A stretch of 64,000 bases of DNA from assembly GCA_903922175.1 (NCBI GenBank), contig CAIXSY010000024.1, positions 634 to 64,633 on the forward strand, given 5' to 3'. Position 1 is the first letter of the stretch; each line of letters begins with the position of its first letter. Shown here in pieces: positions 1,197 to 57,338 of this stretch. Both the position numbers and the translations under genes were made by a program. The notes beneath the pieces are model-generated. The model made no database searches and was not told where the DNA came from. It saw nothing but the letters and a program-made list of their open reading frames with translations. The stretch is from an uncultured delta proteobacterium. Its GTDB lineage: Bacteria > Bdellovibrionota_C > UBA2361 > CAIXSY01.

Positions 1197-3953
1197 ATGA
1201 CCATCGCTGCTGCCAACACTGCCTTTTCAGTCAACCAGGAGGCAGCGATAGCTGCCTCCTCTCCTGAAAGTATCCACGAGTCAGAAACCTACGAGCAGCT
1301 GCTGGCGATGGCGGGGAAGCGCTTTCATCCGCTGCCGGCAGATTATCTTGTGCGGCATGTTATGGCCGTTACGCCGATGGGAAATTGGCCGGTGAGGCGC
1401 GCGGCACTTGAGGCTTTGCAGACGCGCCAGGCCAATCTCCTTCGTGATCAGCTGCAAGTGACAGGAGCGGTGCGAGCGAAACGTCCTCATGCGGAATTTA
1501 AGGTGAGTCGGCCTGGTCGGAAGGGGCAAAGCTATCGGGTGCTGTTGCGGGGAGTTTGTCCGCTTGATGCCGCCTGCAGCTGCCCCGACTTTGTGCGTAA
1601 CTCGCTTGGTGTGTGTAAACATATTTTGGCAGTGTTGCGTGCAAAATGCGAGGATCGCGGAGAAGAGATCTTTAACGCGGCAGCGCCAGAAGACAGAGTG
1701 CCTACGCCGGGGCTGCTCTGGAATCCAATTCGCCCGCTTTGTGGAGCCTATGATCTGCTCTCTGGTTTTGAGTGGCGCGGCAGTGCTGATAGTTGCCCGA
1801 CTGGCGCACGTTTCCTGCTACGTAAGTTCTTCACTAAAAAGAGCGACGATAGTCTATCTTTGGCGGATAAGGCGCTTGCAGTGAGTGCCCGCCGTGGAGT
1901 CTTGTTAAAGACGCTACGTGCACTTTTGGATCCATCTCAGGGCTCACCCTCAGACCCGGCGGCAGAAGTTGTATTAGCGACAGAGGAAGCTCGCCAAGCC
2001 CTTCGGACAAGGAGCCGTAAGGCGCTTGAGACACTTTCGGCAGCCCTCAAAAGCTTCAAACAGAAGCTCTATCCCTATCAGATCGAGGGGGTTCGCCGTT
2101 TTCTCGAAAACGGCAGATTGCTTCTGGCTGATGATATGGGGCTCGGTAAAACCATGCAGGCTATCGCCGCTTGTCACGCACTTTGGCAGGCGCACCTCGT
2201 GCGGCGTGGTTTGTTGATCGTGCCGGCCGCGCTAAAATCGCAGTGGCTGCGTGAATGGCAACGTGCCACCGATCTGCCCGTCGTCATTGTTGAGGGCACG
2301 CAGCGTGAGCGTCTGCAGATTTATCGTCGTCATGAGCGTGGCTTTCTGATTGCTAACTATGAGCAGGTCTGGCGTGATCTGGAGGAGATGCATCACTGGC
2401 AACCTGATCTGGTTGTGCTTGATGAAGCGCAGCGCATTAAGAACTGGTCCACAAAAACTGCGCAGTACGTCAAACAGCTCCAGCCGCAGTTTCGGCTCGT
2501 GCTTACCGGCACTCCGATGGAGAATCGCATTGATGAGCTGGTCTCTATCGTCGACTGGGTCGACAGCTTCGCCTTGCAACCGGTGTGGCGGATTAATGCA
2601 CAGCACCTGGTTCTGATAGATGGTCGTTCGGAGGTCGGTGGACTGCGTGATCTGGGGCTACTGCGTGCTCGATTAGATCCCTGCCTTTTACGTCGCTTGC
2701 GCACGGATGTGTTAAAACAGCTTCCGAAGCGCAGCGATACCGTCATTCCGGTGCCGCTTAGCGACGCGCAGAAGGGCGCTCACGCTGATTACGATCAGCC
2801 GATCGTGCAGCTGATGGCTATCGCCAAAAAGCATCCGCTGACCCAAGCACAGTTTCTAAGGCTAATGAGCTATTTTACCTCGCAGCGCATCATCTGTAAC
2901 GGCATAGAGCAGTATCAGTTTGATGATCACTGGCCGGAGCTTTCGCAGGTACGCAACCCGCGTGAGGATTTTTTGGCCTCGCTCAATTCCCCGAAGCTAG
3001 CTGAATTCTACCGTGTCATACGCTCCATAGTCATCGAGCAAGGGCGTAAAGCGGTGGTCTTTAGTCAGTGGCGTCATATGCTTATCTTGGCGCAGTGGGC
3101 CGTGAGTGGATTACTGGCCGAGCACGGTGTGCGCGCCGTCTTTTTTACGGGGCAGGAGTCGCAGAAACGGCGCACGCACAATATTGTCGATTTTCATGAT
3201 GACCCATCGGCGCGCATCTTCTTTGCCACGGATGCTGGAGGGGTCGGCCTAAACCTGCAGCATGCAGCGAATTGCTGCATTAATCTCGATCTGCCGTGGA
3301 ACCCGGCCGTGCTTGAGCAGCGCATCGGTCGCATCTATCGCCTGGGACAGAAGCACCCCATCGATGTCTATAACCTCGTCGCCGAAACAGGGATCGAGGC
3401 TCGCATTAGTACCATTGTGGCCAACAAACGCGCTATGTTTAAGGGGATCTTCGATGGTGGAAGCGATCAAGTTGAGTTCGAGCATCAGGGATCGTTCCTT
3501 GAGCGGATGGCGCGAATAATTGAGCCGGTAGATATTCCAAAGCTTGGCGCAGTAGCTGCACAATCTGAAGATGAAAACTGCATGGAAGAGGTCACGGATC
3601 TAGAGCATGAGGCGTCAGCCGAGGTATCTGTGGAGGCGCCTGTTGGGGCATCTTTGGGTGGAGGATCCAGTCCCGTGCCGTTGTCTGAGGCACCGGCACG
3701 AGTGCTCGCTCCGGTAGCGGCTGCGCTACCACCGAGCGAAGCTGCGGAGACACCCGCGCCGTCAATCGCCGCGCTCTTTTCTCAGGTTACCGTGCAACGT
3801 CGCGAGGATGGAGGAATTACGCTGCAGGCCCCGCCGCAGGCAGCCGCTCAGCTCGCGGGTGCTTTTGACGTTCTGGCGCAGCTGTTGCGGGCGGCGGGGC
3901 AAGTATCGTCAGGCGGCAGCCTACCCCAATCGACTAGCCCGTTGCGCAATTAA
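1197..3953 (+). CDS. SNF2/RAD54-family helicase with an N-terminal SWIM zinc finger and an Ala/Pro-rich tail
   Basis: 918 aa. SWIM CxCx(n)CxH is CSCPDFVRNSLGVCKHILAV. Helicase motifs are LADDMGLGKT (I), VLDEAQRIKN (II), LTGTPMEN (III) and QRIGRIYRLGQ (VI). The last ~130 aa are low-complexity A/P/S. Confidence 0.9.
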   Translation: MTIAAANTAFSVNQEAAIAASSPESIHESETYEQLLAMAGKRFHPLPADYLVRHVMAVTPMGNWPVRRAALEALQTRQANLLRDQLQVTGAVRAKRPHAEFKVSRPGRKGQSYRVLLRGVCPLDAACSCPDFVRNSLGVCKHILAVLRAKCEDRGEEIFNAAAPEDRVPTPGLLWNPIRPLCGAYDLLSGFEWRGSADSCPTGARFLLRKFFTKKSDDSLSLADKALAVSARRGVLLKTLRALLDPSQGSPSDPAAEVVLATEEARQALRTRSRKALETLSAALKSFKQKLYPYQIEGVRRFLENGRLLLADDMGLGKTMQAIAACHALWQAHLVRRGLLIVPAALKSQWLREWQRATDLPVVIVEGTQRERLQIYRRHERGFLIANYEQVWRDLEEMHHWQPDLVVLDEAQRIKNWSTKTAQYVKQLQPQFRLVLTGTPMENRIDELVSIVDWVDSFALQPVWRINAQHLVLIDGRSEVGGLRDLGLLRARLDPCLLRRLRTDVLKQLPKRSDTVIPVPLSDAQKGAHADYDQPIVQLMAIAKKHPLTQAQFLRLMSYFTSQRIICNGIEQYQFDDHWPELSQVRNPREDFLASLNSPKLAEFYRVIRSIVIEQGRKAVVFSQWRHMLILAQWAVSGLLAEHGVRAVFFTGQESQKRRTHNIVDFHDDPSARIFFATDAGGVGLNLQHAANCCINLDLPWNPAVLEQRIGRIYRLGQKHPIDVYNLVAETGIEARISTIVANKRAMFKGIFDGGSDQVEFEHQGSFLERMARIIEPVDIPKLGAVAAQSEDENCMEEVTDLEHEASAEVSVEAPVGASLGGGSSPVPLSEAPARVLAPVAAALPPSEAAETPAPSIAALFSQVTVQRREDGGITLQAPPQAAAQLAGAFDVLAQLLRAAGQVSSGGSLPQSTSPLRN

Positions 3954-5258
3954 GCGCTCTAATCGATCCTTCTCGGTATCTGGTATCCACGCATGAGCAG
4001 CGAGGGCTGCGGCGATATTGGGCAGATTTTTATAGCGTTTTGAGAGATTCTTATATGCCTTTGGCGTGATTCCTAAATAGGTAGCAAAACTCTCAAAGTC
4101 GGATCCTCCTAATTTATTTTTTTTTCCTCCGAGTGGAAGAGCAAGCTCTTCGTCGTCTCCTGGTTCTAGTGCCTCAACAGAGACAAGATCGTAGCACGGT
4201 GTAAGGCGAATTCCAGCTTGGGTAAAAATGGAGAGGTTCTTTAGGTGTAGGTCGCTGTTGCCAACCAAAAATGAGAAAAGTACATGCTCAAAGAAACGAG
4301 TGACATCAAGTCCTGGCTGGCTAGAGTGTTCTTTGATCCATCTTCCGATCTGATTGTAACTACTGCCATATTTTTGAGCGCCTTGATTGCGATCGAATAT
4401 CTGACCAAAATCTTCGACAGAAACCTTTGCCACCGCTGCGTGCTCTTGGCGAACACGATCAAACCTGCGTACGAGGTAGGCGAACGTTCCATCTTGGAGC
4501 GCGATAAGACCGAAAGGTGGTACGGGGATGCCCATAGCTGAAGCTATGTTCATGATCAGATGTTCATTGGCGGCCATGCTGGGAAGTTCTGCGGGGGCGG
4601 GTTTTAAGATGTACTCCCCCCATAATCCGACAATCGTTAGTCGTCCCCCCAGATCGCCCGAATTTCGATCGAGCGAGAGCGAAAGTTTTCTCTGTACGCC
4701 GGTGACGGCGAGTCTCTGGTTAACAACCTCAAGTCCGAGGCGGTCGATGTCGTGCGCAGTGGCATTGATGATCGGGGCATGTGGAGATCCAAAGAGGCTT
4801 TTAGCGCAGGCTTTGTGGTAATGAGCCTCGTCGTGTGTGAGCTTGCCGAGACAACATAGGCAATAGGTCGATGGGGGGAGCTTCTGGGTGGGAGGGAGGG
4901 GGGCCCCATCATTAATCACCGCTTCCACAGGTTCTCGAACTTCGCTTTGCACGGCGACTGAACCGATACAGTCTCCGCACACCGCAAGTAATAGGCGCAT
5001 GCGATCGTTTTTATCTATCTTCCACTGATGAGAAGTAATATTGAGCAGCCAGCCTTCTGGAATTAAACCATCAAAGAATCCGAAGAGTCTATCGGCCTGG
5101 TATGGTAAGGCGCTGCTTGGGAGGGTGACGCTGACTGATTCCGGGGCGGGAAAACCCTTGTTGGTGGCGTCGTAGGTGAAGTGGTAATCTCTCTCGTCAC
5201 TTTCTTCGAGCGTGCCGACGTGCGATCCGTGGTTGGTGATCTCAGCCTTGATGCTCAT
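3921..5258 (-). CDS. hipA: HipA-family serine/threonine kinase toxin
   Basis: 445 aa. The N-terminal coupling domain has LIPEGWLL and GDCIGSVAV. The kinase core has VTGVQRKLSL, ILKP, NEHLIMNIA, YLVRRFDR, LVGNSDLHLKNLS and TPCYDLVS. It shares an ATGA start/stop overlap with hipB. Its 3' end overlaps the SNF2 gene by 33 nt. Confidence 0.9.
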   Translation of the reverse strand: MSIKAEITNHGSHVGTLEESDERDYHFTYDATNKGFPAPESVSVTLPSSALPYQADRLFGFFDGLIPEGWLLNITSHQWKIDKNDRMRLLLAVCGDCIGSVAVQSEVREPVEAVINDGAPLPPTQKLPPSTYCLCCLGKLTHDEAHYHKACAKSLFGSPHAPIINATAHDIDRLGLEVVNQRLAVTGVQRKLSLSLDRNSGDLGGRLTIVGLWGEYILKPAPAELPSMAANEHLIMNIASAMGIPVPPFGLIALQDGTFAYLVRRFDRVRQEHAAVAKVSVEDFGQIFDRNQGAQKYGSSYNQIGRWIKEHSSQPGLDVTRFFEHVLFSFLVGNSDLHLKNLSIFTQAGIRLTPCYDLVSVEALEPGDDEELALPLGGKKNKLGGSDFESFATYLGITPKAYKNLSKRYKNLPNIAAALAAHAWIPDTEKDRLERLIAQRASRLG

Positions 5259-42005: not shown

Positions 42006-42628
42006 TTGATTTTATTATAATGGGGGCGGGCGGGGCGGGGCGTACCGTTCTTGGCACCTGTGCGGATATATCTTCACGTGTAGGCTTTCTTGATGATAAT
42101 TGTGCAGCCACGGTGGTAAACGGCGCCCCGGTTCTTGGAACCACCAACGAGCGAGGCCGTTTGCGAGGTTGCAAATATATCATCGCTTTCGGTAGCCGCT
42201 TCCAGCGTGAACGCAGTAGCGTCTTTGCGACGATGCAGGCAGAAGGATATACTTTTTTTAACGCAATCAATTCACAGGCCTATGTCGATCGCTTCGCCGT
42301 GGTTGGGCAGGGTGTCTTCGTTGGCGCGCAATCAGCGATATTACCGAATGCCAATGTCGGCAATAACTGCTACATCTGTGTAGGTTGTAGCGTCGATCAT
42401 GATTGCGTTGTGGAATGCGGTACCTATCTTGCTCCGGGCGTACATCTTGCTGGTGGAGTTCATGTCGGGGAGAGCGTTTTTATTGGAATAGGGGCCGTGG
42501 TCCTTCCTTTGGTGCGGGTTGGCGCAGGTGCTGTTATTGGTGCCGGAGCCGTCGTTATGCACGATGTCGTACCCGGAGCCGTAGTCGCTGGGGTGCCGGC
42601 GCGAACTTTGCATAAGAAGGAGAGCTGA
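42002..42628 (+). CDS. NeuD/PglD-family hexapeptide-repeat sugar N-acetyltransferase
   Basis: 208 aa. The N-terminal Rossmann-like segment IIMGAGGAGR is followed by left-handed beta-helix repeats (VGNNCYICVGCSVDHDCVVECGTYLAPGVHLAGGVHVGESVFIGIGAVV). It shares an ATGA overlap with the dehydratase gene. Confidence 0.85.
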   Translation: MIDFIIMGAGGAGRTVLGTCADISSRVGFLDDNCAATVVNGAPVLGTTNERGRLRGCKYIIAFGSRFQRERSSVFATMQAEGYTFFNAINSQAYVDRFAVVGQGVFVGAQSAILPNANVGNNCYICVGCSVDHDCVVECGTYLAPGVHLAGGVHVGESVFIGIGAVVLPLVRVGAGAVIGAGAVVMHDVVPGAVVAGVPARTLHKKES

Positions 42629-43768: not shown

Positions 43769-44587
43769 ATGGGTGTTTCTAAGTGGCTCTCTGCGCTGCG
43801 TCGGCCAGGTAATGTTTCAATAGCGCTTTTACCAGCGTACAATGAGGCTAAAAGTATAGCTTCGGTGTTGGATCGTGTGGCGCCACATGTTGACGCTATT
43901 CTTGTCGTTGATGATTGTTCTACGGATGAGACGGTGAACGTTGTACGTCAGTGGGGGCAGCAGCACGAAGGAGCATATCTTGTAGCGCTGCCGCACAATG
44001 TCGGGGCGTCGGGTGCCCTGCGCGCTGGGTATGTCTTGGTGAGCTATCTGCTGCGCATTGGAGTTCTTGCTCCCGACGATGTAATTGTGGAGCTCGATTC
44101 CGATGGGCAGCATGATCCCATCTATATTCCACAGCTGCTTCAATTCTTCCGAGAGGCAAAGCCGTTTGACGTGGTGTTGACGCGACGCGATTTTTCGGTG
44201 TATCCGGCTTACAAGCGCATCGGGAATTGTGGGCTTTCGTTGATTGCTTCGATATTTAGTGACTATTGGTATCGCGATGTGGAATCAAACTTTCGCGCAT
44301 CACGAGTACGAGTGTTTCCGGAACTTCTAAAATATTTCTCCGGATATCGTTATAGTGGCGCTTTTGAAGTCGGAATTATTCATGCGCTGTGTAAGCAGCG
44401 TATTCACAATGAGATGAGCGTTAACGTACCTTTTTATAGGCCAGGCGCAAGCGCGATAGATGGCTTGCATGTGTTGATGTTTGGACTTATTGCAATGCTG
44501 AGAGTTCGGCTGGGCATCGGCAGAGCCGACTTCCAGTCAGAGGAAGAACTGGTATTGAAGTACAGCGAGAGTATCGGGCCCGGATAG
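43769..44587 (+). CDS. GT2 glycosyltransferase of the polyprenyl-phosphate sugar synthase type (DPM1/GtrB/ArnC-like)
   Basis: 272 aa. Blocks are LPAYNEAKSI, VVDDCSTDET, LDSDGQHDP (compare MDADLQHPP in GtrB/ArnC) and a C-terminal hydrophobic segment LHVLMFGLIAML. Confidence 0.8.
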   Translation: MGVSKWLSALRRPGNVSIALLPAYNEAKSIASVLDRVAPHVDAILVVDDCSTDETVNVVRQWGQQHEGAYLVALPHNVGASGALRAGYVLVSYLLRIGVLAPDDVIVELDSDGQHDPIYIPQLLQFFREAKPFDVVLTRRDFSVYPAYKRIGNCGLSLIASIFSDYWYRDVESNFRASRVRVFPELLKYFSGYRYSGAFEVGIIHALCKQRIHNEMSVNVPFYRPGASAIDGLHVLMFGLIAMLRVRLGIGRADFQSEEELVLKYSESIGPG

Positions 44588-44603: not shown

Positions 44604-45860
44604 TCATTCGAGAGTTGTCGATTCTGATCTCTTGATGAGCTGCAAGGCATCTATGGAGACGATTTCCCTCAGTGGTTTTATAAGTGCAAGGCCCACGAGT
44701 ACTGGATAGAGGGCGAATGAATATCCCGGCACCCAGAAGCGTACTGCCAACAAGAGCACATAGCATTGGGCAAGCGAGAGGATAAGAAGGCTTGGCAGAT
44801 ACTGAGTTAGCGTCTTTTTATTCATCCATGCATATGAAGTAAGCCATGCACATGCGGGCGCGAGGAGGATGAAATCGTGTCCCCAAGCGTTGGGCGCAAA
44901 GGCGAGTGCCCAGGGTGAGAACAGGGCGAGCGCGGTGCCTATTCTGCGCACTCGCCACCCGACGCATGCGCCGACAACACATAACAGTAACTGAGGTGCG
45001 AGTAAAAGATAGAAGGGAATATGCCGAGGGAAGAGTCCGTGGACCAGACTTGGTAGTGATGCGCTCGTGATGACCATAGAACCACTCGCTTTCCAGTCGG
45101 CCAAAAAATGGGCGCCAATCTGCGGATCGAGGTACAAGGAGAGCAGCCCACACGCCAGAGTGACGAAAAAGGTAGTCGCGATGAGCGTCCAGTGACGTTG
45201 GTGGAGGGACCACATAACGACAATCGCCACAAGCGGTGCAGTAACGTGAGGTTTGAGGCAGAGAAAGAAGAGCGCTACGCCGGGCAGCACTCCTCCCTTT
45301 GTAGGACCGCAATGGTCAATCAAGATGGCCAGCGCAATCCACATAATCCATGAAGGCGACCCCCAATTGACGCCATGGATCAGCGTTCCAAAGGGCACGA
45401 TCAGCATCGCTACCCAGCCAGCAGAAAAAAGCGAGCCCACGTTGCCAAGTGCCTGTTGGCGAGATCGGATTGTGAGCCATAGGGCAGTTATAGTGCCCAT
45501 AAATTCTGTTAGGAGGAATATTGACTTGGCCGTGGGCAGGGTGAAGAGGCTAAAAATAAGAAAGGGCGTCAACATTGGTGGAAGCCAGAGGAGGCTGAGG
45601 CTAGGACCATTTGGAGACGGTCCCCGTGCAGGGAGGGCGTGTTCCACGAATGCGGTGCTGTCGGGCAGCGCATAGGGGTTCTGACCGCTGCGAAGCAGGT
45701 GTGCTGCTTTCCATAAGCGTGTGAAATCAAAGAGTGACTGATCGGGAAGTAGATACCAGAGGAGGAGGGTGATAATGCTTATCGCCATCCATATGCATGG
45801 ATGAGAAGCGGACAGCTTGACGCATTTTTCCTGTGATTGGGTTGTTTGACTTAAGTTCAT
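44604..45860 (-). CDS. GT87/DUF2029-like GT-C membrane glycosyltransferase
   Basis: I prefer the ATG at 45860, because the track start 45950 overlaps the upstream gene by 68 nt. The first loop is LFDFTRLWKAAHLLRSGQNPY. Polytopic. Confidence 0.65.
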   Translation of the reverse strand: MNLSQTTQSQEKCVKLSASHPCIWMAISIITLLLWYLLPDQSLFDFTRLWKAAHLLRSGQNPYALPDSTAFVEHALPARGPSPNGPSLSLLWLPPMLTPFLIFSLFTLPTAKSIFLLTEFMGTITALWLTIRSRQQALGNVGSLFSAGWVAMLIVPFGTLIHGVNWGSPSWIMWIALAILIDHCGPTKGGVLPGVALFFLCLKPHVTAPLVAIVVMWSLHQRHWTLIATTFFVTLACGLLSLYLDPQIGAHFLADWKASGSMVITSASLPSLVHGLFPRHIPFYLLLAPQLLLCVVGACVGWRVRRIGTALALFSPWALAFAPNAWGHDFILLAPACAWLTSYAWMNKKTLTQYLPSLLILSLAQCYVLLLAVRFWVPGYSFALYPVLVGLALIKPLREIVSIDALQLIKRSESTTLE

Positions 45861-45882
45861 TAGTGCCCGTGGTCTCAGTGCC

Positions 45883-47049
45883 TTAGTTCTGCCCTTGAGA
45901 AGGCAGGGATGGATTAAAGTGATTTTTAAGTCGTAGAAAAGGATATTCAAAGTAGTGGTAGCTCAGAACGCTCAGTGCGATTGAAAGAGCGAGAGCGGCG
46001 AGGGCCTGCAATACAAAAAAAATGAAAGAGCTATGGAACCAGCTAGCCCAGCCATCTACATATCTAAAAATAGTGATCGGGATCATGTGGAGTAAATACA
46101 GACTGTAAGTGTATTTCCCTAGTTTTGTGAAGTATGACAGCCTACTCATTTTAAAGAGTGAGTTTTCGCAGTAGTTCTGTTCGATGATAACAAACGAAAA
46201 AAATAAGGCATTTATCACTTGCCCCGACGGTGACCCCATGACGTCGACGGCAAATAGCCAGGTTATTCCAAATAAGTAAGCGAGCGCAATCCACCGCCCA
46301 TCCAATCTCTGCAGATTCCCTTGGATTCGGACGGAATAGGTGCATATCCAGGCAGCGATGCCGCCGCAGGCGAGATCCCCCATCGCAGAGAATGAATGGA
46401 AGATTAGTTCCGAATGTTCGGAGGGGGCGCTGTGCGCCAGACGAAACGCCACGGAAGAAAAAAAGATGATGACCATCAAAGCTAGTTGCGATGCTGAATG
46501 TTTAACTTTGAGCAGCCACGGCCAAATTGCGTAGAACTGCTCTTCAATGGCGACACTCCACTGTACGCCGAGGATCGGCGAGGGAAATACATGCATGGTA
46601 TCAAAATTTGCAGCGAGAAATAAGAATGCGGTAAGGTTGCAGTGCTCTTGGTAGTTTTGCCCCAACGCGCGGACGAGGCAGGGGTAAAGACCAAACCCGA
46701 GCAGTATCACGAGGTAATAAAGAGGCCAGATGCGCAAGATCCTACGTGCGTAGAATTTCCGAATATGGATCCTGCCATGCTGTAACTGTTCGTGTAGTAA
46801 TAAGAAGGTTATGAGAAATCCGCTCAGTACAAAAAAGAATTGCACGCCGATGAGCCCACTCGCACCGTTGATAGTCATTAAAATACGAGCGAATATTTGG
46901 AAATTTGATTTCGGTTCTGGAGCTAGCCACAGGAAGGAATGGAGAGAGAAGACCGCAAGGAAGGCCAACGTTCGGAACCCATCAAGGTTTTTAAAGATGA
47001 TGTCTTTTTTTTGGGGGGGGGCGTTTTGCGCTGACTCTCTGCATCTCAT
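45883..47049 (-). CDS. Acyltransferase family 3 (OafA-like) membrane O-acyltransferase
   Basis: 388 aa. Blocks are LDGFRTLAFLAVFSLHS and VQWSVAIEEQFYAIWP. It carries the T8G9 tract in codons 10-15. Confidence 0.85.
   Translation of the reverse strand: MRCRESAQNAPPQKKDIIFKNLDGFRTLAFLAVFSLHSFLWLAPEPKSNFQIFARILMTINGASGLIGVQFFFVLSGFLITFLLLHEQLQHGRIHIRKFYARRILRIWPLYYLVILLGFGLYPCLVRALGQNYQEHCNLTAFLFLAANFDTMHVFPSPILGVQWSVAIEEQFYAIWPWLLKVKHSASQLALMVIIFFSSVAFRLAHSAPSEHSELIFHSFSAMGDLACGGIAAWICTYSVRIQGNLQRLDGRWIALAYLFGITWLFAVDVMGSPSGQVINALFFSFVIIEQNYCENSLFKMSRLSYFTKLGKYTYSLYLLHMIPITIFRYVDGWASWFHSSFIFFVLQALAALALSIALSVLSYHYFEYPFLRLKNHFNPSLPSQGQN
47005..47021. repeat. Homopolymer tract T8G9 (C9A8 on the coding strand) inside the 5' end of the acyltransferase gene
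   Basis: The plus strand reads GTC TTTTTTTT GGGGGGGGG C. The tract encodes A-P-P-Q-K-K, and the run lengths agree with the track translation QNAPPQKKD. Confidence 0.85.
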
Positions 47050-47236
47050 ATGGAATCATTATTTGGGTCGCAGATCTCTTGATGAATCTTAGTTATTGAA
47101 CGACATGGCCACTCACTGCACGGTATCCTATGGATTGGTGTCATGTAAACTGGTTGTACCTGGGAGAACACAAGAGAGCCGTGGAACCTCAAACTTGGCG
47201 TAGAAATGCTTCATGCGCGGGGAGGTGGCATCGAGA

Positions 47237-48718
47237 TTAACTTTGCCGTAATGTGAAAGGCATTGTTTCCCCCATTATGCCGCGGGCTCGAAGAAAAATT
47301 ACCATAATTAAAAGGTAGGTGCAGGCAATACCAATTTTTATAACAACTTGAAGCCCAGCTTCCACTTGGCTAAAAAAAGGCTCGATAAGGGGGAGTAGGC
47401 ATGGGAGAAGAGCAATGAACGATGCCTCGAATATCGGCCAGGGAAGCTTTATTAACTTTTGACAAAACAGATATACCGCTGCTACCAATAACATGTTGGC
47501 AAAGACGGCTCCTATTGCTGCTCCGAGGACAGATAGCGTGACAATTAGGACGAGTGTGGTTAGGAAAGAACTGGAGAGGGCGACAAGCGTTATCACCGCC
47601 AGTAGTCTGGATTTTTTCTGCTGATAGATAACGAGAACGAGATTCGAGTAAATTACCCAGAAAAGCATCGCTGAGAGAAGTACTGGAATAAATTGCGATG
47701 TTGAGTGAAATGTAGGTGAGGTTAGTAATGATACTAGATTGGGAGCAAAAAGGCCGAAAGCTATTGCCGCAGCTGAAAAGCCTGCTGTCGACAAGAGGAG
47801 CATGTCCGTAACCTGACGCCAATGTTTTGTTTGTGATAGCTGAAAGAATCGAGGGTTGTTCGATGCTGCAAATGAATTAACTCCCAGGTAGAACGGCTGT
47901 ACGATATTCACTGCTACAAAATAAATGCCGGCGGCCTGTGTGGTGGTAAAATAAGAAAGCGCTATCCGATCTCCGAATCCTTTAATCCAATGCGCAAAGT
48001 TATGAGGAACTAGGGGGGTGGAGAATGAGAGCAACTCTCTTATCTTGGGTAACTTCTCCCTGGTATCTACTCTTCCCCACCAGAGTGTCAACAGTGCGGT
48101 TATGCTGTTAGAAAAAACGGCAGCTAATATGATGCTTAATGCATTGCGCTGAAAATAGATGAGAAATAAAACCGCGAGAGTTGTTGTCAGTGTGAACTGG
48201 ATTCCTCCAAAAAGAGAATATTCTTTCATTCGCTCTGATGCACGAAGCTGCTCTTGTGATGTGACAAAGAAGCCCCCGAGTAGGCCAGCCATGAGGGAGA
48301 AAAAAAGATATGGGTATACGGGGATATTGAAAATAAGTTTGTTCTTTAGCCAGATGGTTAATAAGACAACCCCAGATGCCGCGAGGAGAAATACCCGCGA
48401 TTGAAAATGAAGCGCAACTCGCAAGATGCTGCCAGGAGGGGACTCGCTGCGAAGAGAGAGAAAATAAACAGCATCTGAAATACCCAAGAAAACCAAAAGC
48501 GGAGCTAGTGTCGATACGGAAGCGCAAACTGACACGATCCCCAGGTTGTATTGATCAAGATAGTAAGTATAAATAGGCAGGAGCGCGCAGCTAATTAGTT
48601 TTTGTGCAATCGAGACAAAAAAATAGAGGCTTGAGTTTGAAAATCGTTTATTCAACTTCGGGACTCCAGAGATGCACGGCGTCTTGTCATGGCGCGCTTG
48701 AACTAACCCTGCTTGCAA
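47237..48718 (-). CDS. Wzx-like oligosaccharide flippase (MOP/polysaccharide biosynthesis protein family)
   Basis: 493 aa with about 12-14 hydrophobic segments. The N-terminal FFVSIAQKLISCALLPIYTYYLDQYNLGIVSV is typical. The start is non-ATG (TTG 48718 or TTG ~48655). Confidence 0.7.
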   Translation of the reverse strand: MQAGLVQARHDKTPCISGVPKLNKRFSNSSLYFFVSIAQKLISCALLPIYTYYLDQYNLGIVSVCASVSTLAPLLVFLGISDAVYFLSLRSESPPGSILRVALHFQSRVFLLAASGVVLLTIWLKNKLIFNIPVYPYLFFSLMAGLLGGFFVTSQEQLRASERMKEYSLFGGIQFTLTTTLAVLFLIYFQRNALSIILAAVFSNSITALLTLWWGRVDTREKLPKIRELLSFSTPLVPHNFAHWIKGFGDRIALSYFTTTQAAGIYFVAVNIVQPFYLGVNSFAASNNPRFFQLSQTKHWRQVTDMLLLSTAGFSAAAIAFGLFAPNLVSLLTSPTFHSTSQFIPVLLSAMLFWVIYSNLVLVIYQQKKSRLLAVITLVALSSSFLTTLVLIVTLSVLGAAIGAVFANMLLVAAVYLFCQKLIKLPWPIFEASFIALLPCLLPLIEPFFSQVEAGLQVVIKIGIACTYLLIMVIFLRARGIMGETMPFTLRQS

Positions 48719-49634
48719 GGTGTAACCTCTTCTCTAGGCGCACCCTGAGCGTTCTCCATAATAGAATGAGCATAGATTGAGAAGGATGAAAAAATATTTC
48801 TTGCAATAGTCCGCATAGTCCCCATGCAGCTCCTTCGAAGAAAGGTTTTCTCTCATTTTTTGGTGGCAACTCACGATAATTCGAATATAGGGCACTCAAG
48901 TAGTTTTCGGCATTTGCTGGGCCACTGAGGGTTAGTCCAGCGAATTTATAGCGAGTAATCGGAAAAACATCGATATATTTGTAGGCGGGGCGCTGGAGTG
49001 GGGTGCCAGCGCTTTTGGTATCAGCAGCCCATTCATGAAATGCGTATGTAACTCGGCAGTTGTTCGGTTCGCTTGTCAGGTAATCGAATTTCGTCAAGTA
49101 ATTTTCGGTGGTAAGCAATTCCAAAAAAATAGAAGTCTCCTCCCGCAGGCCAGCAGAAATGCCATTTAGAGCGGATTTGGTACGATTTCTGTCCTCATCT
49201 ATGAAGCCTGGTGAGTTGGGGAGAATTTTTGCATTTGAGATATCCAGCCCAAAGTGTTGGAATGAATGTCCGAGTCGGCGAAATCCATCCAGCGAGTTCA
49301 AAGACATGTGCATGTGGTCCAGGACATTTCGTGGAGATCTTGCATTGTGGGATATAAAAAAACGAGGATGCCATCTTGTTTCATCGATCAAGACCTTCCT
49401 TAATCTTTCGAAGCTTGCGGCAAGCACGCAAACGTCAGCATCATCATCCCAGGGAATAAATCCCTGATGGCGTATGGCACCAAGGAGCGTACCGCCATCC
49501 ATCCAGTAGTTTATAGCATGCTTTTTGCAAACCCAATCAAGGAATGAAAGTAAATCAAGGAGAACGAGCTGATAACGAAGGAGCCCAGGGTAGCTCTGAT
49601 ATTCGCAAGTGTGATCCGCGGGCTCGCTTATCAT
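48687..49634 (-). CDS. LicD-family phosphotransferase (CDP-alcohol to glycan transfer)
   Basis: 315 aa. The hallmark block is YWMDGGTLLGAIRHQGFIPWDDDADVCV. It shares an ATGA overlap with the upstream methyltransferase gene. Confidence 0.85.
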   Translation of the reverse strand: MISEPADHTCEYQSYPGLLRYQLVLLDLLSFLDWVCKKHAINYWMDGGTLLGAIRHQGFIPWDDDADVCVLAASFERLRKVLIDETRWHPRFFISHNARSPRNVLDHMHMSLNSLDGFRRLGHSFQHFGLDISNAKILPNSPGFIDEDRNRTKSALNGISAGLREETSIFLELLTTENYLTKFDYLTSEPNNCRVTYAFHEWAADTKSAGTPLQRPAYKYIDVFPITRYKFAGLTLSGPANAENYLSALYSNYRELPPKNERKPFFEGAAWGLCGLLQEIFFHPSQSMLILLWRTLRVRLEKRLHLASRVSSSAP

Positions 49635-50272
49635 GCTTTCTCGCCAAGTATGGCATAGTAGTGAGTATTATGCCATTTGTTGAACTTTGCCGGATATATA
49701 TCAAAGGCTTCGACGTGCCGAAATCCCAGTTCTTCCAACAGTGAGATCTCCTGTTGGAGCTTCCTATATTCTGCGAAATAATGCTGGCCGACCTCTTTCG
49801 ACGGACCCTCGACAACAACATTCTCTATCACGCCGAATTGATTCTTAACTATGAATTTTCCGCCCTTCTTTAGCATTCTTAGGCAGTTGCGGTATATCTC
49901 CTGCACCTCTGCTCGGTTAAAGTGGTGAAGTACTCCAAATGCGGTGATGAGGCTAAACGCCTTGTCTACAATAAAGTCTTTCAAGTCCGCATTAATTATC
50001 GTTATATTGGGACGCCTGACGATGAAATTTGAAAACTCCGGAAGAAATTCGACGCAAGTAATTTCACTGACGAGTTGAGCAATCTGGTTCACAATAAGTC
50101 CGGTGCCACTTCCTAGATCGAGCACGGTGCTGTCTGTGCATAGGTATGGCAGCAGAAAATTTACATCAAGCTGCGGAAGCGCGTGAGCATCGTTTTTTAG
50201 TTTAATATCCTCAGGAACTTTAATCTGACCCGATAGCCATCGGTAGAATTCCAAACTCTGCTTATTCTCCAT
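49631..50272 (-). CDS. Class I SAM-dependent methyltransferase
   Basis: 213 aa. Motif I is VLDLGSGTGLIVNQ, and the post-I/II blocks are VEFLPEF and ITAFGVLHHF. Confidence 0.8.
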   Translation of the reverse strand: MENKQSLEFYRWLSGQIKVPEDIKLKNDAHALPQLDVNFLLPYLCTDSTVLDLGSGTGLIVNQIAQLVSEITCVEFLPEFSNFIVRRPNITIINADLKDFIVDKAFSLITAFGVLHHFNRAEVQEIYRNCLRMLKKGGKFIVKNQFGVIENVVVEGPSKEVGQHYFAEYRKLQQEISLLEELGFRHVEAFDIYPAKFNKWHNTHYYAILGEKA

Positions 50273-50975
50273 TGCAACTCCCTGACGCCGACCTAACTAG
50301 GTATCTCGCGAGTTCTGTGCACGAGTCTACGAGGATCGTTGGTAAATTATGGGTTCTCGGATCGAATTTAACGCTCAATTCAGTACAGCCTAAAATAATA
50401 ATATCGGGGCGATATTTGTCGTACACCAATCCCATTACTGCAGCCAGCTGCTCTGTTTGTGCCGTCGACGGAAAATCCTTTATGCTATAAATAATCTTCT
50501 CTACGAGCAATTGAATGTCCTCATCGTGGTTGAGGTATTCCATCCCAAGCGCATTAATGAAAGGTTTGTAGGTTTGCTTTTTATAAGTAATCGGCGCGCC
50601 TAAAACCATAACAGAGCGCGAGTGATCTCGAAATTGCTTCAGCGCGGTGCACGTCCTTTCAATAATATTGATGACAGGGACAGCTACTTGACGGCGAATA
50701 TCGTCAATAAAAAAACAAGCGCTGTTACAAGGGATATAAACTTCATCGACCGGGTAAGATTGAAGTCTCTTTAGAGAGTCCACCATTCCAGGTACCGGGC
50801 TAGCTTCGCCGTATAAGATGTGCCGCGTGCGGCTTGGGATGTGTGGGTTGACGTCGAGTATTATCCGCAGGTGATCGCGATCAGTCGTAGCTGGAGTCAG
50901 GGCGAGGACACGCTTATAAAACTCAAACGAGGCATACGGCCCCATCCCCCCTAGAATTCCAATAGTCTTGGTCAT
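50262..50975 (-). CDS. Aspartate/glutamate-family amino-acid racemase
   Basis: 237 aa. IGILGGMGPYAS is present, and both catalytic Cys blocks are present (IPCNSA and LGCTELS). Confidence 0.85.
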   Translation of the reverse strand: MTKTIGILGGMGPYASFEFYKRVLALTPATTDRDHLRIILDVNPHIPSRTRHILYGEASPVPGMVDSLKRLQSYPVDEVYIPCNSACFFIDDIRRQVAVPVINIIERTCTALKQFRDHSRSVMVLGAPITYKKQTYKPFINALGMEYLNHDEDIQLLVEKIIYSIKDFPSTAQTEQLAAVMGLVYDKYRPDIIILGCTELSVKFDPRTHNLPTILVDSCTELARYLVRSASGSCNGE

Positions 50976-51619
50976 CGTCTGCCGACTGAGTTTTTTAGAA
51001 AAAGTTTAGCTTTTGAAAAATCTCTCATGGTGTCAATATCCATAGCTCGTACGCACACGCCACGGATTGGTAGAAAACTTGCAATATGCTGATAAACGTG
51101 AAGCTTTTTATGAGCAGCGAGATGCTCACGTCGTAAGCATGCCGGCCCTAGCCATTCGTATTCGCCGCTTCTTCGAGTAAAGGAAATTACGTGCTCTTTG
51201 TCGTCGAGCCTTACATATACGGGTTCCTCCGAAGTTTTTTTTGTGAAGCCGATGAATTCCTCTGACATGGCCAGTAATCTCTTCATGTCGTCGGGGTGTA
51301 CAAGGAGGTCTCCATCGATAGAGAAAACCAAATCATGTCCGTACTGCGCGCCTAGGTAAAGACTTGCCAGGGTTTTGGTGTTGAAATAATCGTGATTATA
51401 GATGAAAAGGATGTCGTTCCTTACTTGTCGAACCACTTCTATTAGTCTGTCCGCTTCGAACCCAACTACAATACGAACATCTTCAACTTCTTTGAGCATA
51501 TCAAGTTGCCAGTGAATAATCGGACGGCCCGAAATCTCGATCAGTGATTTGGTATGACCAAGTCCCAGGCGGCTTCCGATCCCGGCACAGGTTATAACAA
51601 CTGTTTTAGGAATGTGCAT
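50972..51619 (-). CDS. Nucleotidyltransferase (LicC/IspD/MobA-like, probable cytidylyltransferase for a phospho-alcohol)
   Basis: 215 aa. The N-terminal VVITCAGIGSRLGLGHTKSLIEISGRPII is the G-x-G-x-R...K nucleotidyltransferase loop. Confidence 0.75.
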   Translation of the reverse strand: MHIPKTVVITCAGIGSRLGLGHTKSLIEISGRPIIHWQLDMLKEVEDVRIVVGFEADRLIEVVRQVRNDILFIYNHDYFNTKTLASLYLGAQYGHDLVFSIDGDLLVHPDDMKRLLAMSEEFIGFTKKTSEEPVYVRLDDKEHVISFTRRSGEYEWLGPACLRREHLAAHKKLHVYQHIASFLPIRGVCVRAMDIDTMRDFSKAKLFLKNSVGRR

Positions 51620-52260
51620 AATCGCTCGGCAGAATATACAGCATGTGTAGCGACGCTCCTGACCGTTCGGGAGGGGGGATGAACTCCACCGAAGGCGATC
51701 GAAATATCGGACACCATCATCGCTTGCGCATCATTGTTTCCCTCCCCAATAAAAACTACGCGCTCTGCACTACGGCGGCACTGGGCCGTCACCTGCTCTT
51801 TATTTATGATCTGGTCAAGCCGAATCACGTGGTCGTCTTTTACGCACGCCGTTGATACAAAATAAGCACAGCCTAGCCTTTTCAAGAGAGGAACAACCCA
51901 GCAATCTAGGTTTTGGGTAATAACTCGGCAATTTCTCGGGTGTGTGACGATGAACGACGCTATATGGGAATTTAATTTGGTTTTTGTAATCAAGTCTCTT
52001 ATCTGAGAGACTGGGAGTTTTCCTAAGACGTTCACTCTTTTGATGAAGGACTCAATGAAAGGTACTTTTCCCTCTATCGTATCTTTGGTGAGCGCTTCAA
52101 TATCTTCTTTAATGCCCGGGAAATTCTTAGCAATTAGAGGAAGTGTCTCCTCCTCGGTGACCGTTCCGTCAAGGTCGAAAAGAAAAAGAGTCTCTGCTAT
52201 CTTTGTTTTAAAGCTACTTGCCACATTGTTGAAGATACCCTTCTTGGAAAAACAAAACAA
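51592..52260 (-). CDS. HAD-superfamily hydrolase, subfamily IB (phosphoserine-phosphatase-like)
   Basis: Motif I is LFDLDGTVT and motif IV is GEGNNDAQAM. The start is non-ATG (TTG 52260 or GTG 52224). Confidence 0.8.
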   Translation of the reverse strand: MFCFSKKGIFNNVASSFKTKIAETLFLFDLDGTVTEEETLPLIAKNFPGIKEDIEALTKDTIEGKVPFIESFIKRVNVLGKLPVSQIRDLITKTKLNSHIASFIVTHPRNCRVITQNLDCWVVPLLKRLGCAYFVSTACVKDDHVIRLDQIINKEQVTAQCRRSAERVVFIGEGNNDAQAMMVSDISIAFGGVHPPSRTVRSVATHAVYSAERLCTFLKQLL

Positions 52261-52378
52261 CTAGCAGGCTGCCTCCGAGGTTTATTACCTGTGGCGTCGT
52301 TCACTCTAATAAGGCAGCTTATAATATCAAATAATGCTGGCTGTTAATATTTATAGGGTCGAGAAGACTCTGGAACTG

Positions 52379-52768
52379 GTCAGGTAGGTAGCTGTTTTAT
52401 TATTGACCCATTTTTTCTAACTAATTAGCACTATTGATGGGGGCACCATATACGCAATATTTCGCACGGAGACGCACCGATCGCCCGGAAAAATACGGAG
52501 CGGAATGTGCCTGCCTTCATCACGCAGTCTCCTATAGGACTCCGTGGTTCCATTGTGCCTCTTGGTGTGAAACATACTGCTAAAAATGCCAAAAGTGCTG
52601 AATGGTTACCATTTTTTTAGACGACAAACCGTATCGAATTTTACTTTTGGGTCTCGGATGAAGCACTATCGCTTGGTCCGACTCGGCGCATGTCATAGTT
52701 TGCCAGAAAGGATAGGCACCATACAGCGGGCTTTGTGCCTTTGCTCTTGAAAACAGCTACCTATTGAC
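52379..52768. repeat. Pair of ~19-bp inverted repeats enclosing ~350 bp of non-coding DNA (MITE-like or relic)
   Basis: GTCAGGTAGGTAGCTGTTTT (52379-52398) faces AAAACAGCTACCTATTGAC (52750-52768). The pair lies inside the 568-bp ORF-free gap between divergent operons. Confidence 0.4.
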
Positions 52769-52828
52769 TTAAACTTGGTAACAGGTTTTTCTACTTGCGT
52801 AATCAGTCAGATTGTATATCACCTTTAG

Positions 52829-53887
52829 ATGAGTCTGCTTCTCGGATTCAAGGGCACAATGCCGAGGTTTTTTTGTACCTATCTTAATATAAATTACCTC
52901 TCTCGTGGAATTGCGCTCCTGCATTCTCTGCATGCTGTGGTAGGCGATTTCATGTTGTTGGTGGTGTGTTTTGATGAAACATCTCTTGCAGCGTGCCGTG
53001 CGCTGAACGATGAAAGACTTCAGAGCGTATCTATCGACTCGGTGGAGCAGGCTGTTCCTGCCTTGTGCGAGCTAAAATCGGTGCGTTCAGCAGTTGAATA
53101 TTTTTTTTCGGCAACCCCGTGTGTTATCGATTATGCCCTCGAGTTCTTTTCAGAGGCTCAGCTTATTACCTACCTCGATGCGGATCTTTTTTTCTTTGCC
53201 TCTCCAGAGCCCATCTTCGCAGAGATTGGGGATGCCTCAGTTGGAATTATTGAGCACCGTTTTTCGGGGCGTAATGAGCATTTAAATAAGTTTGGACGCT
53301 TCAATGTCGGTTGGGTTTCTTTTCGCCGTGACGGTGATGGTCTCGCTTGTTTACAGTGGTGGAAGGAGAGCTGTCTTGAGTGGTGCTTCGATCGACTCGA
53401 TGGCGATCGATACGCCGATCAGAAGTATCTCGATCAGTGGCCGACGCGCTTTAACAAAGTCAGAGTCATTGCGCATCAAGGGGCTAACGTAGCACCTTGG
53501 AATATGGAAAATCTTCCACTCTCAAAGACGGCCGGGCAGTTGGAGGTGGGGCGCTGGCCGCTTATTTTCTTTCACTTCCAAGGTCTTCGTCAATTGACCT
53601 CAAAGATATTTAATAGTGGGGTCGGGCGTTATGGCGTAGCCCTTGATGCCTCGTGGCGCACGCTGGTATTTGAGCCGTATGTTGGGGCATTAATTGACGC
53701 CGGTGCCTTGTTACGAGATTGTGCGCCGCATGCCTCTGCCGCGACTACGAGCCGTGTTCCTCAGCCGTTCTCAAATCGCCTTGTGGCCGTTGTTTATAGT
53801 AGCTACAATCGTGCGCGGTCCGCGTTACGTCTCGTGCGTGATGCGGCCCTATTTAGGGCGTTGGTGCGAGCCCACAAATCTTCTTAA
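52829..53887 (+). CDS. GT-A-fold nucleotide-diphospho-sugar transferase (GT8-like)
   Basis: 352 aa. The DxD block is ITYLDADLFFFASP. The N-terminal CTYLNINYLSRGIALLHSL is typical of this poorly characterised group. Confidence 0.55.
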   Translation: MSLLLGFKGTMPRFFCTYLNINYLSRGIALLHSLHAVVGDFMLLVVCFDETSLAACRALNDERLQSVSIDSVEQAVPALCELKSVRSAVEYFFSATPCVIDYALEFFSEAQLITYLDADLFFFASPEPIFAEIGDASVGIIEHRFSGRNEHLNKFGRFNVGWVSFRRDGDGLACLQWWKESCLEWCFDRLDGDRYADQKYLDQWPTRFNKVRVIAHQGANVAPWNMENLPLSKTAGQLEVGRWPLIFFHFQGLRQLTSKIFNSGVGRYGVALDASWRTLVFEPYVGALIDAGALLRDCAPHASAATTSRVPQPFSNRLVAVVYSSYNRARSALRLVRDAALFRALVRAHKSS

Positions 53888-53900
53888 TGGAGACGATTGC

Positions 53901-54743
53901 GTGCAGTGGCGAAAGATTCTAAGGCCGTTTGTCCCTCCGCTTTTATGGCAAGCTGGCCGTCTTCTTATGGGCGAGCAGGACTCGCTGCGGTTTTATGGCC
54001 CCGTTGCTTCATGGGAGGATGCCCTCGGTCGTTGCGCAGGGTATGGCTCGCCGCTTATTCTTGAGGCTGCCAAGCAAGCGCGCTTAAAAGTTGAGCGGGG
54101 GGAGGCAGCATGGGAGCGTGATGGGGTTGCCTTTTCTTCCGGCAATCCACCGTTTCCGCTTTTGTGCGCGATCCTTGTGGCATCATTAAACATCAAGCAC
54201 CGCCTCGTCGTGCTTGATTACGGCGGTGCGCTTGGGAGTTCCTACACACAGTGCCGACATTTTTTAAAAAATTTACCTGAGATATTGTGGTTAGTTGTGG
54301 AACAACCGCACATTGCGCAATGTGGACGTGAGCTTTTTGAATCATCCTCGCTAAGGTTTTTTGACAGCATTGAGGACGCTAGTCGTGCTGCAACCCCGGA
54401 CATTGTCGTTCTCTCAGGCGTGCTTCAGTATCTTTCGCGACCGTATGAGGTGCTTGCAACACTAGTCAAGCTTCGGGCCTCAGTACTCTTTATTGATCGC
54501 ACATCTTTTTCAACTTCCGCAGATCTGCTTACTGTGCAACTGGTACCAAGCGTGCACTCGGCGATTAGCTACCCTTGTTGGTTCCTTGATCAAGGGGCAG
54601 TACTTTCCATGGTAGCGGAGCAATATCTTGCATTAACTACTTTTGATTGCCCAGAGGGATTTTATAGCAGGGCGAGGCTTTGTGCGCACTTTCGGGGAAT
54701 ACTTTTTAGTCTAAAGAACTATTCGCCGTCTGAGAAAGCATAG
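53901..54743 (+). CDS. SAM-dependent methyltransferase of the TIGR04325 (LIC12133-like) type
   Basis: I use the GTG at 53901, preceded by GGAGA. Track start 53694 overlaps the previous gene. FYGPVASWEDALGRCAGYGSPLILE....GEAAWERDGV and VLDYGGALGSSY resemble that family. Confidence 0.6.
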   Translation: MQWRKILRPFVPPLLWQAGRLLMGEQDSLRFYGPVASWEDALGRCAGYGSPLILEAAKQARLKVERGEAAWERDGVAFSSGNPPFPLLCAILVASLNIKHRLVVLDYGGALGSSYTQCRHFLKNLPEILWLVVEQPHIAQCGRELFESSSLRFFDSIEDASRAATPDIVVLSGVLQYLSRPYEVLATLVKLRASVLFIDRTSFSTSADLLTVQLVPSVHSAISYPCWFLDQGAVLSMVAEQYLALTTFDCPEGFYSRARLCAHFRGILFSLKNYSPSEKA

Positions 54744-56339: not shown

Positions 56340-57338
56340 ATGCACTTCTTAAGACTACGCAAAATACCAAACGGCCCTCTGCGCATCGAAATTCAGAGCA
56401 CTGCTGAAGGCACCAGAATTGTTAAGCTATTTTCGTCTGAGATGCAGGCACCCTCATTGGTTCATGAATTTGAGACGAAATATACAGTTGAGCTCATTGA
56501 AGCTCTTTTAAAGACTCATGGAGCTGCGTCTCTTTGGGATGAAATTCGGCGCGATGAGGACCCGACGCATATTCGGCGTCGCTTGGGGGCCTTGATTGAG
56601 GCGCATGGAATTGTCCCCTCAAAAACACATCGCATCTTGGATTTTGGATGTGGGGCGGGAGCCTCAACCCTAAACCTATCGCGTTTTTTCCCGAGTGCTG
56701 AGGTAATCGGTATTGAGCCACAGCGCCAGATGATAGAAGTTGCAAGGAAACGCGCTGATTTTTGGGAGCTCTCAAACATCTCTTTCTTACCTTCTGAGAG
56801 TGACACAAAGTTGCCCGAGGTGAGGGGCCCTTTTGATTTAATTCTTCTCAATGCTGTTTATGAGCATCTACTTCCCGATGAAAGGAGGCTCCTTTTGCCT
56901 CAGTTATGGAGGGCTCTTCGTCCACAGGGAATAGTTATAATCACCGCGACCCCTCACCGCTATTATCCATTTGAAATTCATAGCACAAGCCTTCCTCTTA
57001 TAAACTACCTGCCGGATTCATTGGCCTTCCACTGTGCCAAGAAATTCTCCCGAAGGGTATGCGGAGATCCGACATGGGAGAGCCTTCTCAAGGGGGGGAT
57101 TCGTGGTGGCACGCCTAGAGGAGTGCTTGCTCACCTTACTGCAGGCAATTTGCAGGAGGGGGAAATTCTTGTGCCACGCGGAGAGAATATAAAAGATAGT
57201 GTGGACCTCTGGTGGTCGGCGACAGATCCATTGAGAAGCAAATTTCAACGCCGAGTGGCTTTTGTAATCGGAAAAATTGGAGGCATTTTCGGTCTTGAAC
57301 TGCTTCCTAGCTTGGAAATGGCTATAAGAAAAGTTTAG
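56340..57338 (+). CDS. Class I SAM-dependent methyltransferase
   Basis: Blocks are ILDFGCGAGASTLNLS, VIGIEP and LLNAVYEHL. Confidence 0.8.
   Translation: MHFLRLRKIPNGPLRIEIQSTAEGTRIVKLFSSEMQAPSLVHEFETKYTVELIEALLKTHGAASLWDEIRRDEDPTHIRRRLGALIEAHGIVPSKTHRILDFGCGAGASTLNLSRFFPSAEVIGIEPQRQMIEVARKRADFWELSNISFLPSESDTKLPEVRGPFDLILLNAVYEHLLPDERRLLLPQLWRALRPQGIVIITATPHRYYPFEIHSTSLPLINYLPDSLAFHCAKKFSRRVCGDPTWESLLKGGIRGGTPRGVLAHLTAGNLQEGEILVPRGENIKDSVDLWWSATDPLRSKFQRRVAFVIGKIGGIFGLELLPSLEMAIRKV

Follow-up and report, generated by a model that had tools for sequence, protein, structure and literature searches.

A composite homopolymer tract near the 5' end of a predicted acyltransferase gene was identified as a tentative candidate for a switch that works by slipped-strand mispairing. 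It was studied in a stretch of 64,000 nucleotides (the window) from an uncultured delta proteobacterium (GenBank assembly GCA_903922175.1, contig CAIXSY010000024.1, positions 634 to 64,633 of the forward strand). The tract lies at 47005..47021 on the minus strand, inside the open reading frame (ORF) 45883..47049(-), which encodes a standalone membrane protein of 388 residues of the acyltransferase-3 (AT3) family. On the coding strand it consists of C9 (47013-47021) followed by A8 (47005-47012), and it takes up nt 29-45 of the coding sequence (CDS). By analogy, C9A8 may act as a functional contingency switch, as in Neisseria pglI, and we give this reading slightly less than an even chance. It rests on the position of the tract, the class of the gene and a codon choice with p ~0.02.

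Direct reading of the forward strand gave GTC-T8-G9-CGT at 47002-47024. The ORF starts with ATG AGA TGC AGA GAG TCA GCG CAA AAC GCC CCC CCC CAA AAA AAA GAC, and codons 10-15 (GCC CCC CCC CAA AAA AAA) encode A P P Q K K. These coordinates and this composition agreed with a preliminary description of the window, which had proposed a phase-variation switch in an OafA-like O-acyltransferase. As that description had also reported, C9 was the longest G/C run. It was the only one of at least 8 in the window, and the runners-up were two runs of 7, a C7 inside a GT87-like gene (30044-30050) and a G7 inside a methyltransferase gene (57092-57098). The unusual feature of C9 was its place close to the 5' end of the CDS, which had a modest statistical weight (p ~0.02). 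Synonymous codons were resampled in the 45 ORFs of the window, and in 1.85% of the replicates at least one ORF had a G/C run of 9 or more in its first 60 nt, which was nearly always due to the AT3 gene itself. Given the AT3 peptide, the probability of such a run was 0.017 under synonymous resampling, and that of GCC CCC CCC for APP was 0.018. These p-values on run position and codon choice are post hoc. The A8 half was unremarkable, as the window holds 14 A/T runs of at least 8. The longest A/T run of the window is an A9 (coding strand) at 4117-4125, about 85% along a HipA-like toxin gene (3921..5258(-)). A second T8 run (coding strand) is present near the 3' end of the AT3 gene, at 46015-46022 (about nt 1028-1035). 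An imperfect (GGGGC)x4 was observed at 42023-42042, corresponding to nt 22-41 of a NeuD/PglB/VioB-family acetyltransferase gene. It was rejected as a switching repeat because it is not clean and encodes a Gly-rich motif.

The start codon was examined by reading the frames around the tract. At the present length, no in-frame start other than ATG1 (47047..47049(-)) lies upstream of the conserved core, and frame 0 is shut by a TGA two codons before it. No Shine-Dalgarno motif was found before this ATG, and only some genes of the window have one. In an alignment of 24 sequences, the invariant core begins at F19, three residues past the tract. Further on, the first codon that could serve as an in-frame start is the TTG of L28 (46966..46968(-)), and after a +1 or -2 change translation of the enzyme could begin no earlier than here. 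Starting there would delete the invariant F19-R26 segment (F19, L22, D23 and R26), and the product is presumed to be inactive. This meant that the start lies upstream of the tract and that the tract is translated. A true start downstream of the tract, which the preliminary description had named as a ground for refutation, was therefore rejected.

The coding effect of each tract length was then clear from the frames. The 17-nt tract gives the 388-residue enzyme from ATG 47049, so the frame is open in the present state, as described earlier. A tract changed by +1 or -2 gives a 19-residue peptide from ATG1 with no start upstream of the core, and this state is predicted to be OFF. A tract changed by -1 or +2 gives a 41-residue peptide from ATG1, and two other ATGs join the frame of the whole enzyme, one at 47057..47059(-) (offset -10) and one at 47042..47044(-) (offset +5). 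The product from the first of these is predicted to begin with MIPYEMQRVSAKRPP(Q/P)KKD..., a leader that retains the basic patch in the -1 state, and the enzyme with such a leader is probably active. Since a -1 change is potentially rescued in this way, only +1 and -2 changes, one of the three frames, are clearly OFF. The simple on/off switching of the preliminary description had to be given up, and the device, if it is one, would have the states ON, ON' and OFF.

In the proposed mechanism, the C9 run would gain or lose a base during replication at a rate useful to the host, and the A8 run would do so less often. At 17 nt the enzyme would be made from ATG 47049, which is the state seen. After a +1 (or -2) change, translation would stop after 19 codons, with no start before the R-X10-H motif of the family. 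After a -1 (or +2) change, ATG 47049 would be out of frame and the alternative starts would be used, which would probably keep the gene ON with another leader and perhaps at a different level. Cells of the population would come to differ in the O-acylation of a surface glycan, a trait that would be under selection.

The protein was assigned to its family by a match to PF01757 (Acyl_transf_3) with an E of 3.6e-27 and 95.7 bits (cut-off 31), in which residues 20-364 were aligned with profile positions 2-325 of 326. Homologs numbered 5329, and the best 120 of these 5329 all carried PF01757. The nearest homolog among 5.8 billion proteins searched was 42% identical, and the best matches were from Bacteroidota. 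The R-X10-H motif was found as R26-TLAFLAVFSL-H37 within a predicted helix (residues 22-42), with R and H invariant in the 24-sequence alignment. The RXXR motif was found as R103-I-L-R106, and R102, R103 and R106 were invariant in the same alignment. In the AT3 family, R-X10-H in transmembrane helix (TMH) 1 is absolutely conserved (Arg14/His25 of OafB), RXXR on the cytoplasmic face of TMH3 is highly conserved, and neither OafB nor Oac can do without the Arg of R-X10-H (PMC9833829). The AlphaFold model (pLDDT 85.7, pTM 0.87) was all-helical from residue 22, with about 10 long helices and some short ones, and the AT3 fold has ten TMH. A search of the PDB by sequence found no bacterial AT3 structure. 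The fold search with the model gave no match at E <= 0.001 and returned weak human HGSNAT matches (probability 0.6-0.84, TM 0.33-0.34). An SGNH domain was absent, as the protein ends 24 residues past the PF01757 match with no second domain. This indicated an AT3-only enzyme like Oac and WbaK, not a fusion of the OafA/OafB/PglI type. The earlier comparison with OafA thus held for the AT3 domain and its two motifs, and went no further than that domain. These results suggested that the protein is probably an acyltransferase acting on the carbohydrate of a surface glycan, a prediction whose acceptor side comes from the genomic context of Wzx, LicD, GT2, GT-C-like and amino-sugar genes.

The segment that carries the tract was the non-conserved leader before this core. 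Residues 1-21 were modelled as coil with a pLDDT of 48-62, and the leaders of the family ranged from ~5 to ~45 residues in the 24-sequence alignment. Changes of length or frame in the leader should therefore be tolerated. Three homologs with similar P/A/K leaders used mixed codons without a run; in P0082, for example, PAPPKAK is written CCT GCA CCA CCC AAA GCG AAA. This meant that the uninterrupted tract was specific to the AT3 gene of the window.

Known systems were compared with the tract, and the closest case was pglI of Neisseria meningitidis and N. gonorrhoeae. The AT3 domain (PF01757) covers residues 8-343 of PglI (NMB1836; PMC1976384), and the pglI product O-acetylates a protein O-glycan built on 2,4-diacetamido-trideoxyhexose (PMC9558356). 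Its tract is a genic poly-G of 9-15 (PMC5953494; PMC10425976), and among paired carriage isolates 41% showed a change in the gene (PMC5445459). The precedent for poly-G/C switching was thus real and closer than the preliminary description had stated. The two genes are alike in the PF01757 domain, in a poly-G/C tract inside the reading frame and in a surface-glycan context. The window also holds a 4,6-dehydratase, a NeuD/PglB/VioB N-acetyltransferase and a DegT aminotransferase at 3-6 kb from the AT3 gene. However, PglI is an AT3-SGNH fusion, whereas the window protein has the AT3 part only in its 388 residues. Its best homologs are Bacteroidota proteins at no more than 42% identity, and the likeness to PglI is by family and tract only. 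The window tract is at the minimum length and is directly followed by A8. Variation is documented for pglI only, and the window comes from an uncultured bacterium of the environment and not from a mucosal pathogen.

Other glycan O-acyltransferases are switched by repeats of a different kind. In H. influenzae, slipped-strand mispairing at a repeat inside the glycan O-acyltransferase gene oafA switches this gene reversibly (PMC9558356). Pneumococcal wciZ (15B/15C) and S. aureus icaC are also glycan O-acyl transferase genes with reversible switching in intragenic repeats (PMC4432689). These three belong to the same class of glycan O-acyl (acetyl/succinyl) transferases as the window gene, but their repeats are not homopolymers. 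The wciZ repeat is a TA dinucleotide and the icaC repeat is a tetranucleotide. The oafA repeat is reportedly a tetranucleotide too, going by the title of the 2005 report of Fox and co-workers. In Campylobacter jejuni, switching occurs mostly at G9-G10 (modal length G9), with mutation at 1e-4 to 1.6e-3 per division (PMC8355987). The window tract resembles these C. jejuni tracts in its G9-G10 scale and in its place inside the frame of a surface-glycan modification gene, where +/-1 indels would turn the gene ON or OFF. Oac of Shigella phage Sf6 and Salmonella WbaK resemble the window protein as AT3-only enzymes with R-X10-H and RXXR and a lipid-linked or exported glycan substrate (PMC9558356, PMC9833829), but repeat switching is not reported for them in the literature examined. 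Salmonella oafB is switched epigenetically (PMC9558356).

Several observations weighed against a switch, and many of them are expected if the tract is incidental. In that explanation, the usual P/A-rich and basic leader is written in C- and A-rich codons, the run mutates somewhat faster than other sequence, frameshifts are purged and the population is effectively fixed ON, and this too has nearly an even chance of being right. G/C runs of at least 9 were expected by chance at 0.31 per 64 kb in a first-order composition model, and 18-48% of Markov-simulated windows held one. In the synonymous resampling of the 45 ORFs, a replicate had 0.415 such runs on average, and P(any) was 0.35. With about 0.3-0.4 runs expected per window, the run alone was not beyond chance. 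A P/A-rich stretch followed by K-x-K is the usual leader in the AT3 family, and leaders such as PAPPKAK and AAPAKAK were found in homologs. There was no strong avoidance of runs in codon usage, as PP was CCCCCC in 4 of 50 cases and KK was AAAAAA in 11 of 41 cases in the window. By the Neisseria cut-offs of PhasomeIt (G >=9, T >=11; PMC5953494), C9 stands exactly at the bare minimum length and A8 is below the limit for poly-A/T. The window held no second candidate repeat among its ~25 glycan genes (~40 kb), whereas known repeat-switching species carry many. C. jejuni, for its part, is without mismatch repair and has many tracts clustered in its glycan loci. A limited search found no literature on repeat switches in Bdellovibrio-like bacteria. 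An alternative-frame ATG open to nt 45 was present in 9 of the 45 window genes (~20%), and the arrangement of rescuing ATGs was rejected as evidence of design because it was non-significant. The AT3 gene also lies in a low-GC block that is probably a recent arrival, so that the run may still await purging.

Length variation was sought in public data, and the results were uniform. Nine public contigs (from ENA ERZ18648440, ERZ18648719, ERZ27313441 and ERZ1426684, and Logan ERR4194641) carry the AT3 gene, and all encode an identical 388-residue protein. The downstream gene was on the same nine contigs, each time beside the 388-residue form. The four contigs whose DNA was read all had C9A8 and showed 0 differences from the window over 3-7 kb (100% identity). 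The 90% cluster of the AT3 protein had a single member. Ten predicted variant proteins (-1, +1 and in-frame +/-3) were absent from a collection of 15 billion proteins, and a flank pattern with 10-26 nt between the flanks had no match in GTDB species representatives or JGI metagenomes. This uniformity is in line with an incidental tract. However, the contigs are clonal, assemblies give a consensus and close orthologs are absent, which left the test with almost no power, and it neither confirms nor refutes variation. The nearest homolog, at only 42% identity, offers no orthologous tract to compare. The difference in tract length between strains or metagenome-assembled genomes (MAGs) proposed as a check in the preliminary description was not seen, in a comparison of almost no power. 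Its proposal of phase-variable O-acylation kept a sound mechanism and a close precedent, and had against it the constant length in these clonal consensus contigs and the minimum length, solitary occurrence and chance expectation given above. Other results argued against an incidental tract. The place within the first 45 nt of the CDS had p ~0.02 under a codon-aware null, and the gene belongs to a class that is repeat-switched elsewhere. G/C runs of at least 7 were otherwise under-represented in the window, with 3 in the real ORFs compared to 6.4 in the codon-shuffled null (~2-fold). It has been proposed that homopolymers close to 5' ends serve prokaryotes as a general means of inactivating genes, and poly-G/C is for the most part under-represented in the genes of prokaryotes (PMC2831843). 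Against this background, the retention of a C9 is notable.

Readings other than a switch or an incidental tract were, taken together, improbable. In one of them, which we consider very improbable, RNA-polymerase slippage, ribosomal frameshifting or Pro-Pro stalling would limit the full-length enzyme at the level of expression. In frame 0 the A8 reads CA A_AAA_AAA, an in-phase slippery heptamer. However, in the -1 frame from ATG1 a stop follows 5 codons past the tract (19 aa) and the other frame gives 41 aa, so there would be no alternative functional product. Productive ribosomal frameshifting at A_AAA_AAA was rejected, since a stop is reached within 5-26 codons in either shifted frame. An A8 is also short for efficient transcriptional slippage, and the data call for no stimulatory structure. 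A passage of PMC2831843 cites such slippage on long A runs in Buchnera, which favours this reading. In the other, the sequence would be a sequencing or assembly artefact, with a true tract of different length or a gene that is a pseudogene. Homopolymers are error-prone on some platforms, but C9A8 was base-for-base alike in four independently assembled public contigs from different pipelines (ENA scaffold, MEGAHIT k141 and Logan). This meant that the tract length was not an assembly artefact. The frame was also intact with full-length homology to the AT3 family, and we consider an artefact hardly credible.

If the tract does switch, glycan O-acylation would be heterogeneous within clonal populations, and phage adsorption, grazing or prey recognition would be affected. 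The tract would then be one more indication that homopolymer contingency loci are not confined to host-adapted pathogens. A more specific version is that a three-state switch (ON, alternative ON with a probably different efficiency of translation, and OFF) stochastically varies surface-glycan O-acylation in a Bdellovibrionota-like bacterium that is non-pathogenic and either free-living or predatory, perhaps with a GT-C side-branch transferase through polarity, as bet-hedging against phages or grazers. This version is unlikely as it stands; if true, repeat-based contingency loci, known from host-adapted pathogens, would also be present in an uncultured lineage of the environment. Repeat-switched glycan O-acyltransferases are already well established, and the novelty here, if real, would be the unusual host. 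The tract also marks a position at which true population variation may be collapsed in metagenome assemblies and gene callers may annotate a pseudogene in error. Without switching, it would be a plain homopolymer within a leader that varies, and would have no further consequence.

The genomic context was consistent with a surface-glycan locus, and glycan genes fill ~40 kb of the window. The co-directional order is LicD, a Wzx-like flippase, AT3 and a GT87/GT-C-like membrane protein. The flippase gene (47237..48718(-); PF01943, E 4e-14) lies upstream of the AT3 gene with a 187-nt spacer. The GT87/GT-C-like protein of 418 residues (44604..45860(-)) begins 22 nt after the AT3 stop; it was called as a 418-residue gene on the public contigs, and its PF09594 match (E 8.4e-5) was below the gathering score. 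If AT3 translation ends early, there could be polarity on this gene. The convergent block holds the 4,6-dehydratase, the NeuD/PglB/VioB N-acetyltransferase, the DegT aminotransferase and a glycosyltransferase family 2 (GT2) protein of the polyprenyl-phosphate type. The GT2 protein (43769-44587(+)) resembles the polyprenyl-phosphate glycosyltransferases PpgS/ArnC/AglJ with matches below the cut-offs. Together with the GT-C-like protein, it may form a Gtr-like module for periplasmic side-branch glycosylation directly downstream of AT3. A promoter and terminator scan of 45700-47500 gave no signal above the shuffled background, and Rfam and tRNA scans of the window gave no matches.

The base composition differed around the AT3 gene. 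The GC content was 45-47% across 46-54 kb (46000-54000) compared to 50.5% for the whole window. By gene, it was 47% for AT3, 45% for wzx and 46% for licD, and 53% for the adjacent GT-C-like gene. The closest genome by GalU was an uncultured Bdellovibrionales MAG (76%), and the named matches at 70-72% were Bdellovibrionales, Deltaproteobacteria and Proteobacteria MAGs. The host is thus probably a relative of the Bdellovibrionota. The low GC and the Bacteroidota homologs of AT3, set against a GalU near Bdellovibrionales, suggested that the AT3 block was probably acquired horizontally. Inside the flippase gene, three short public contigs from different assemblies start within 15 nt of one another at 47648-47663, where a 64.7-kb scaffold reads through. 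No repeat was visible at 47648-47663. The site looks like a recurrent assembly break and is possibly a strain-variable boundary.

Other acylation genes were found in the window. These were a second Acyl_transf_3 gene (16626-17765(-)) and an MBOAT gene (26907-28307(-)) followed by a GDSL/SGNH-type hydrolase gene (28420-29331(-)), all without a long G/C run. Among the glycan genes there were also two proteins of ~700 residues (21329-23443(+) and 31015-33189(-)), in each of which a spermine/spermidine-synthase-like methyltransferase domain lies in the middle, between long flanks without annotation. An XPF-type nuclease of 235 residues with ERCC4 and helix-hairpin-helix parts is encoded at 6258-6965(-). 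Its close relatives were metagenome proteins (46-61%), and the named relatives at ~35% were a Myxococcales MAG and DPANN archaea. The archaeal origin at which this nuclease hinted was unsupported, as the GalU relatives were bacterial. Genes of the toxin or defence type flank the glycan region, namely the HipA kinase (3921-5258(-)), a DUF4143 AAA ATPase (7225-8424(-)) and an AbiEii nucleotidyltransferase toxin (62259-63059(-)).

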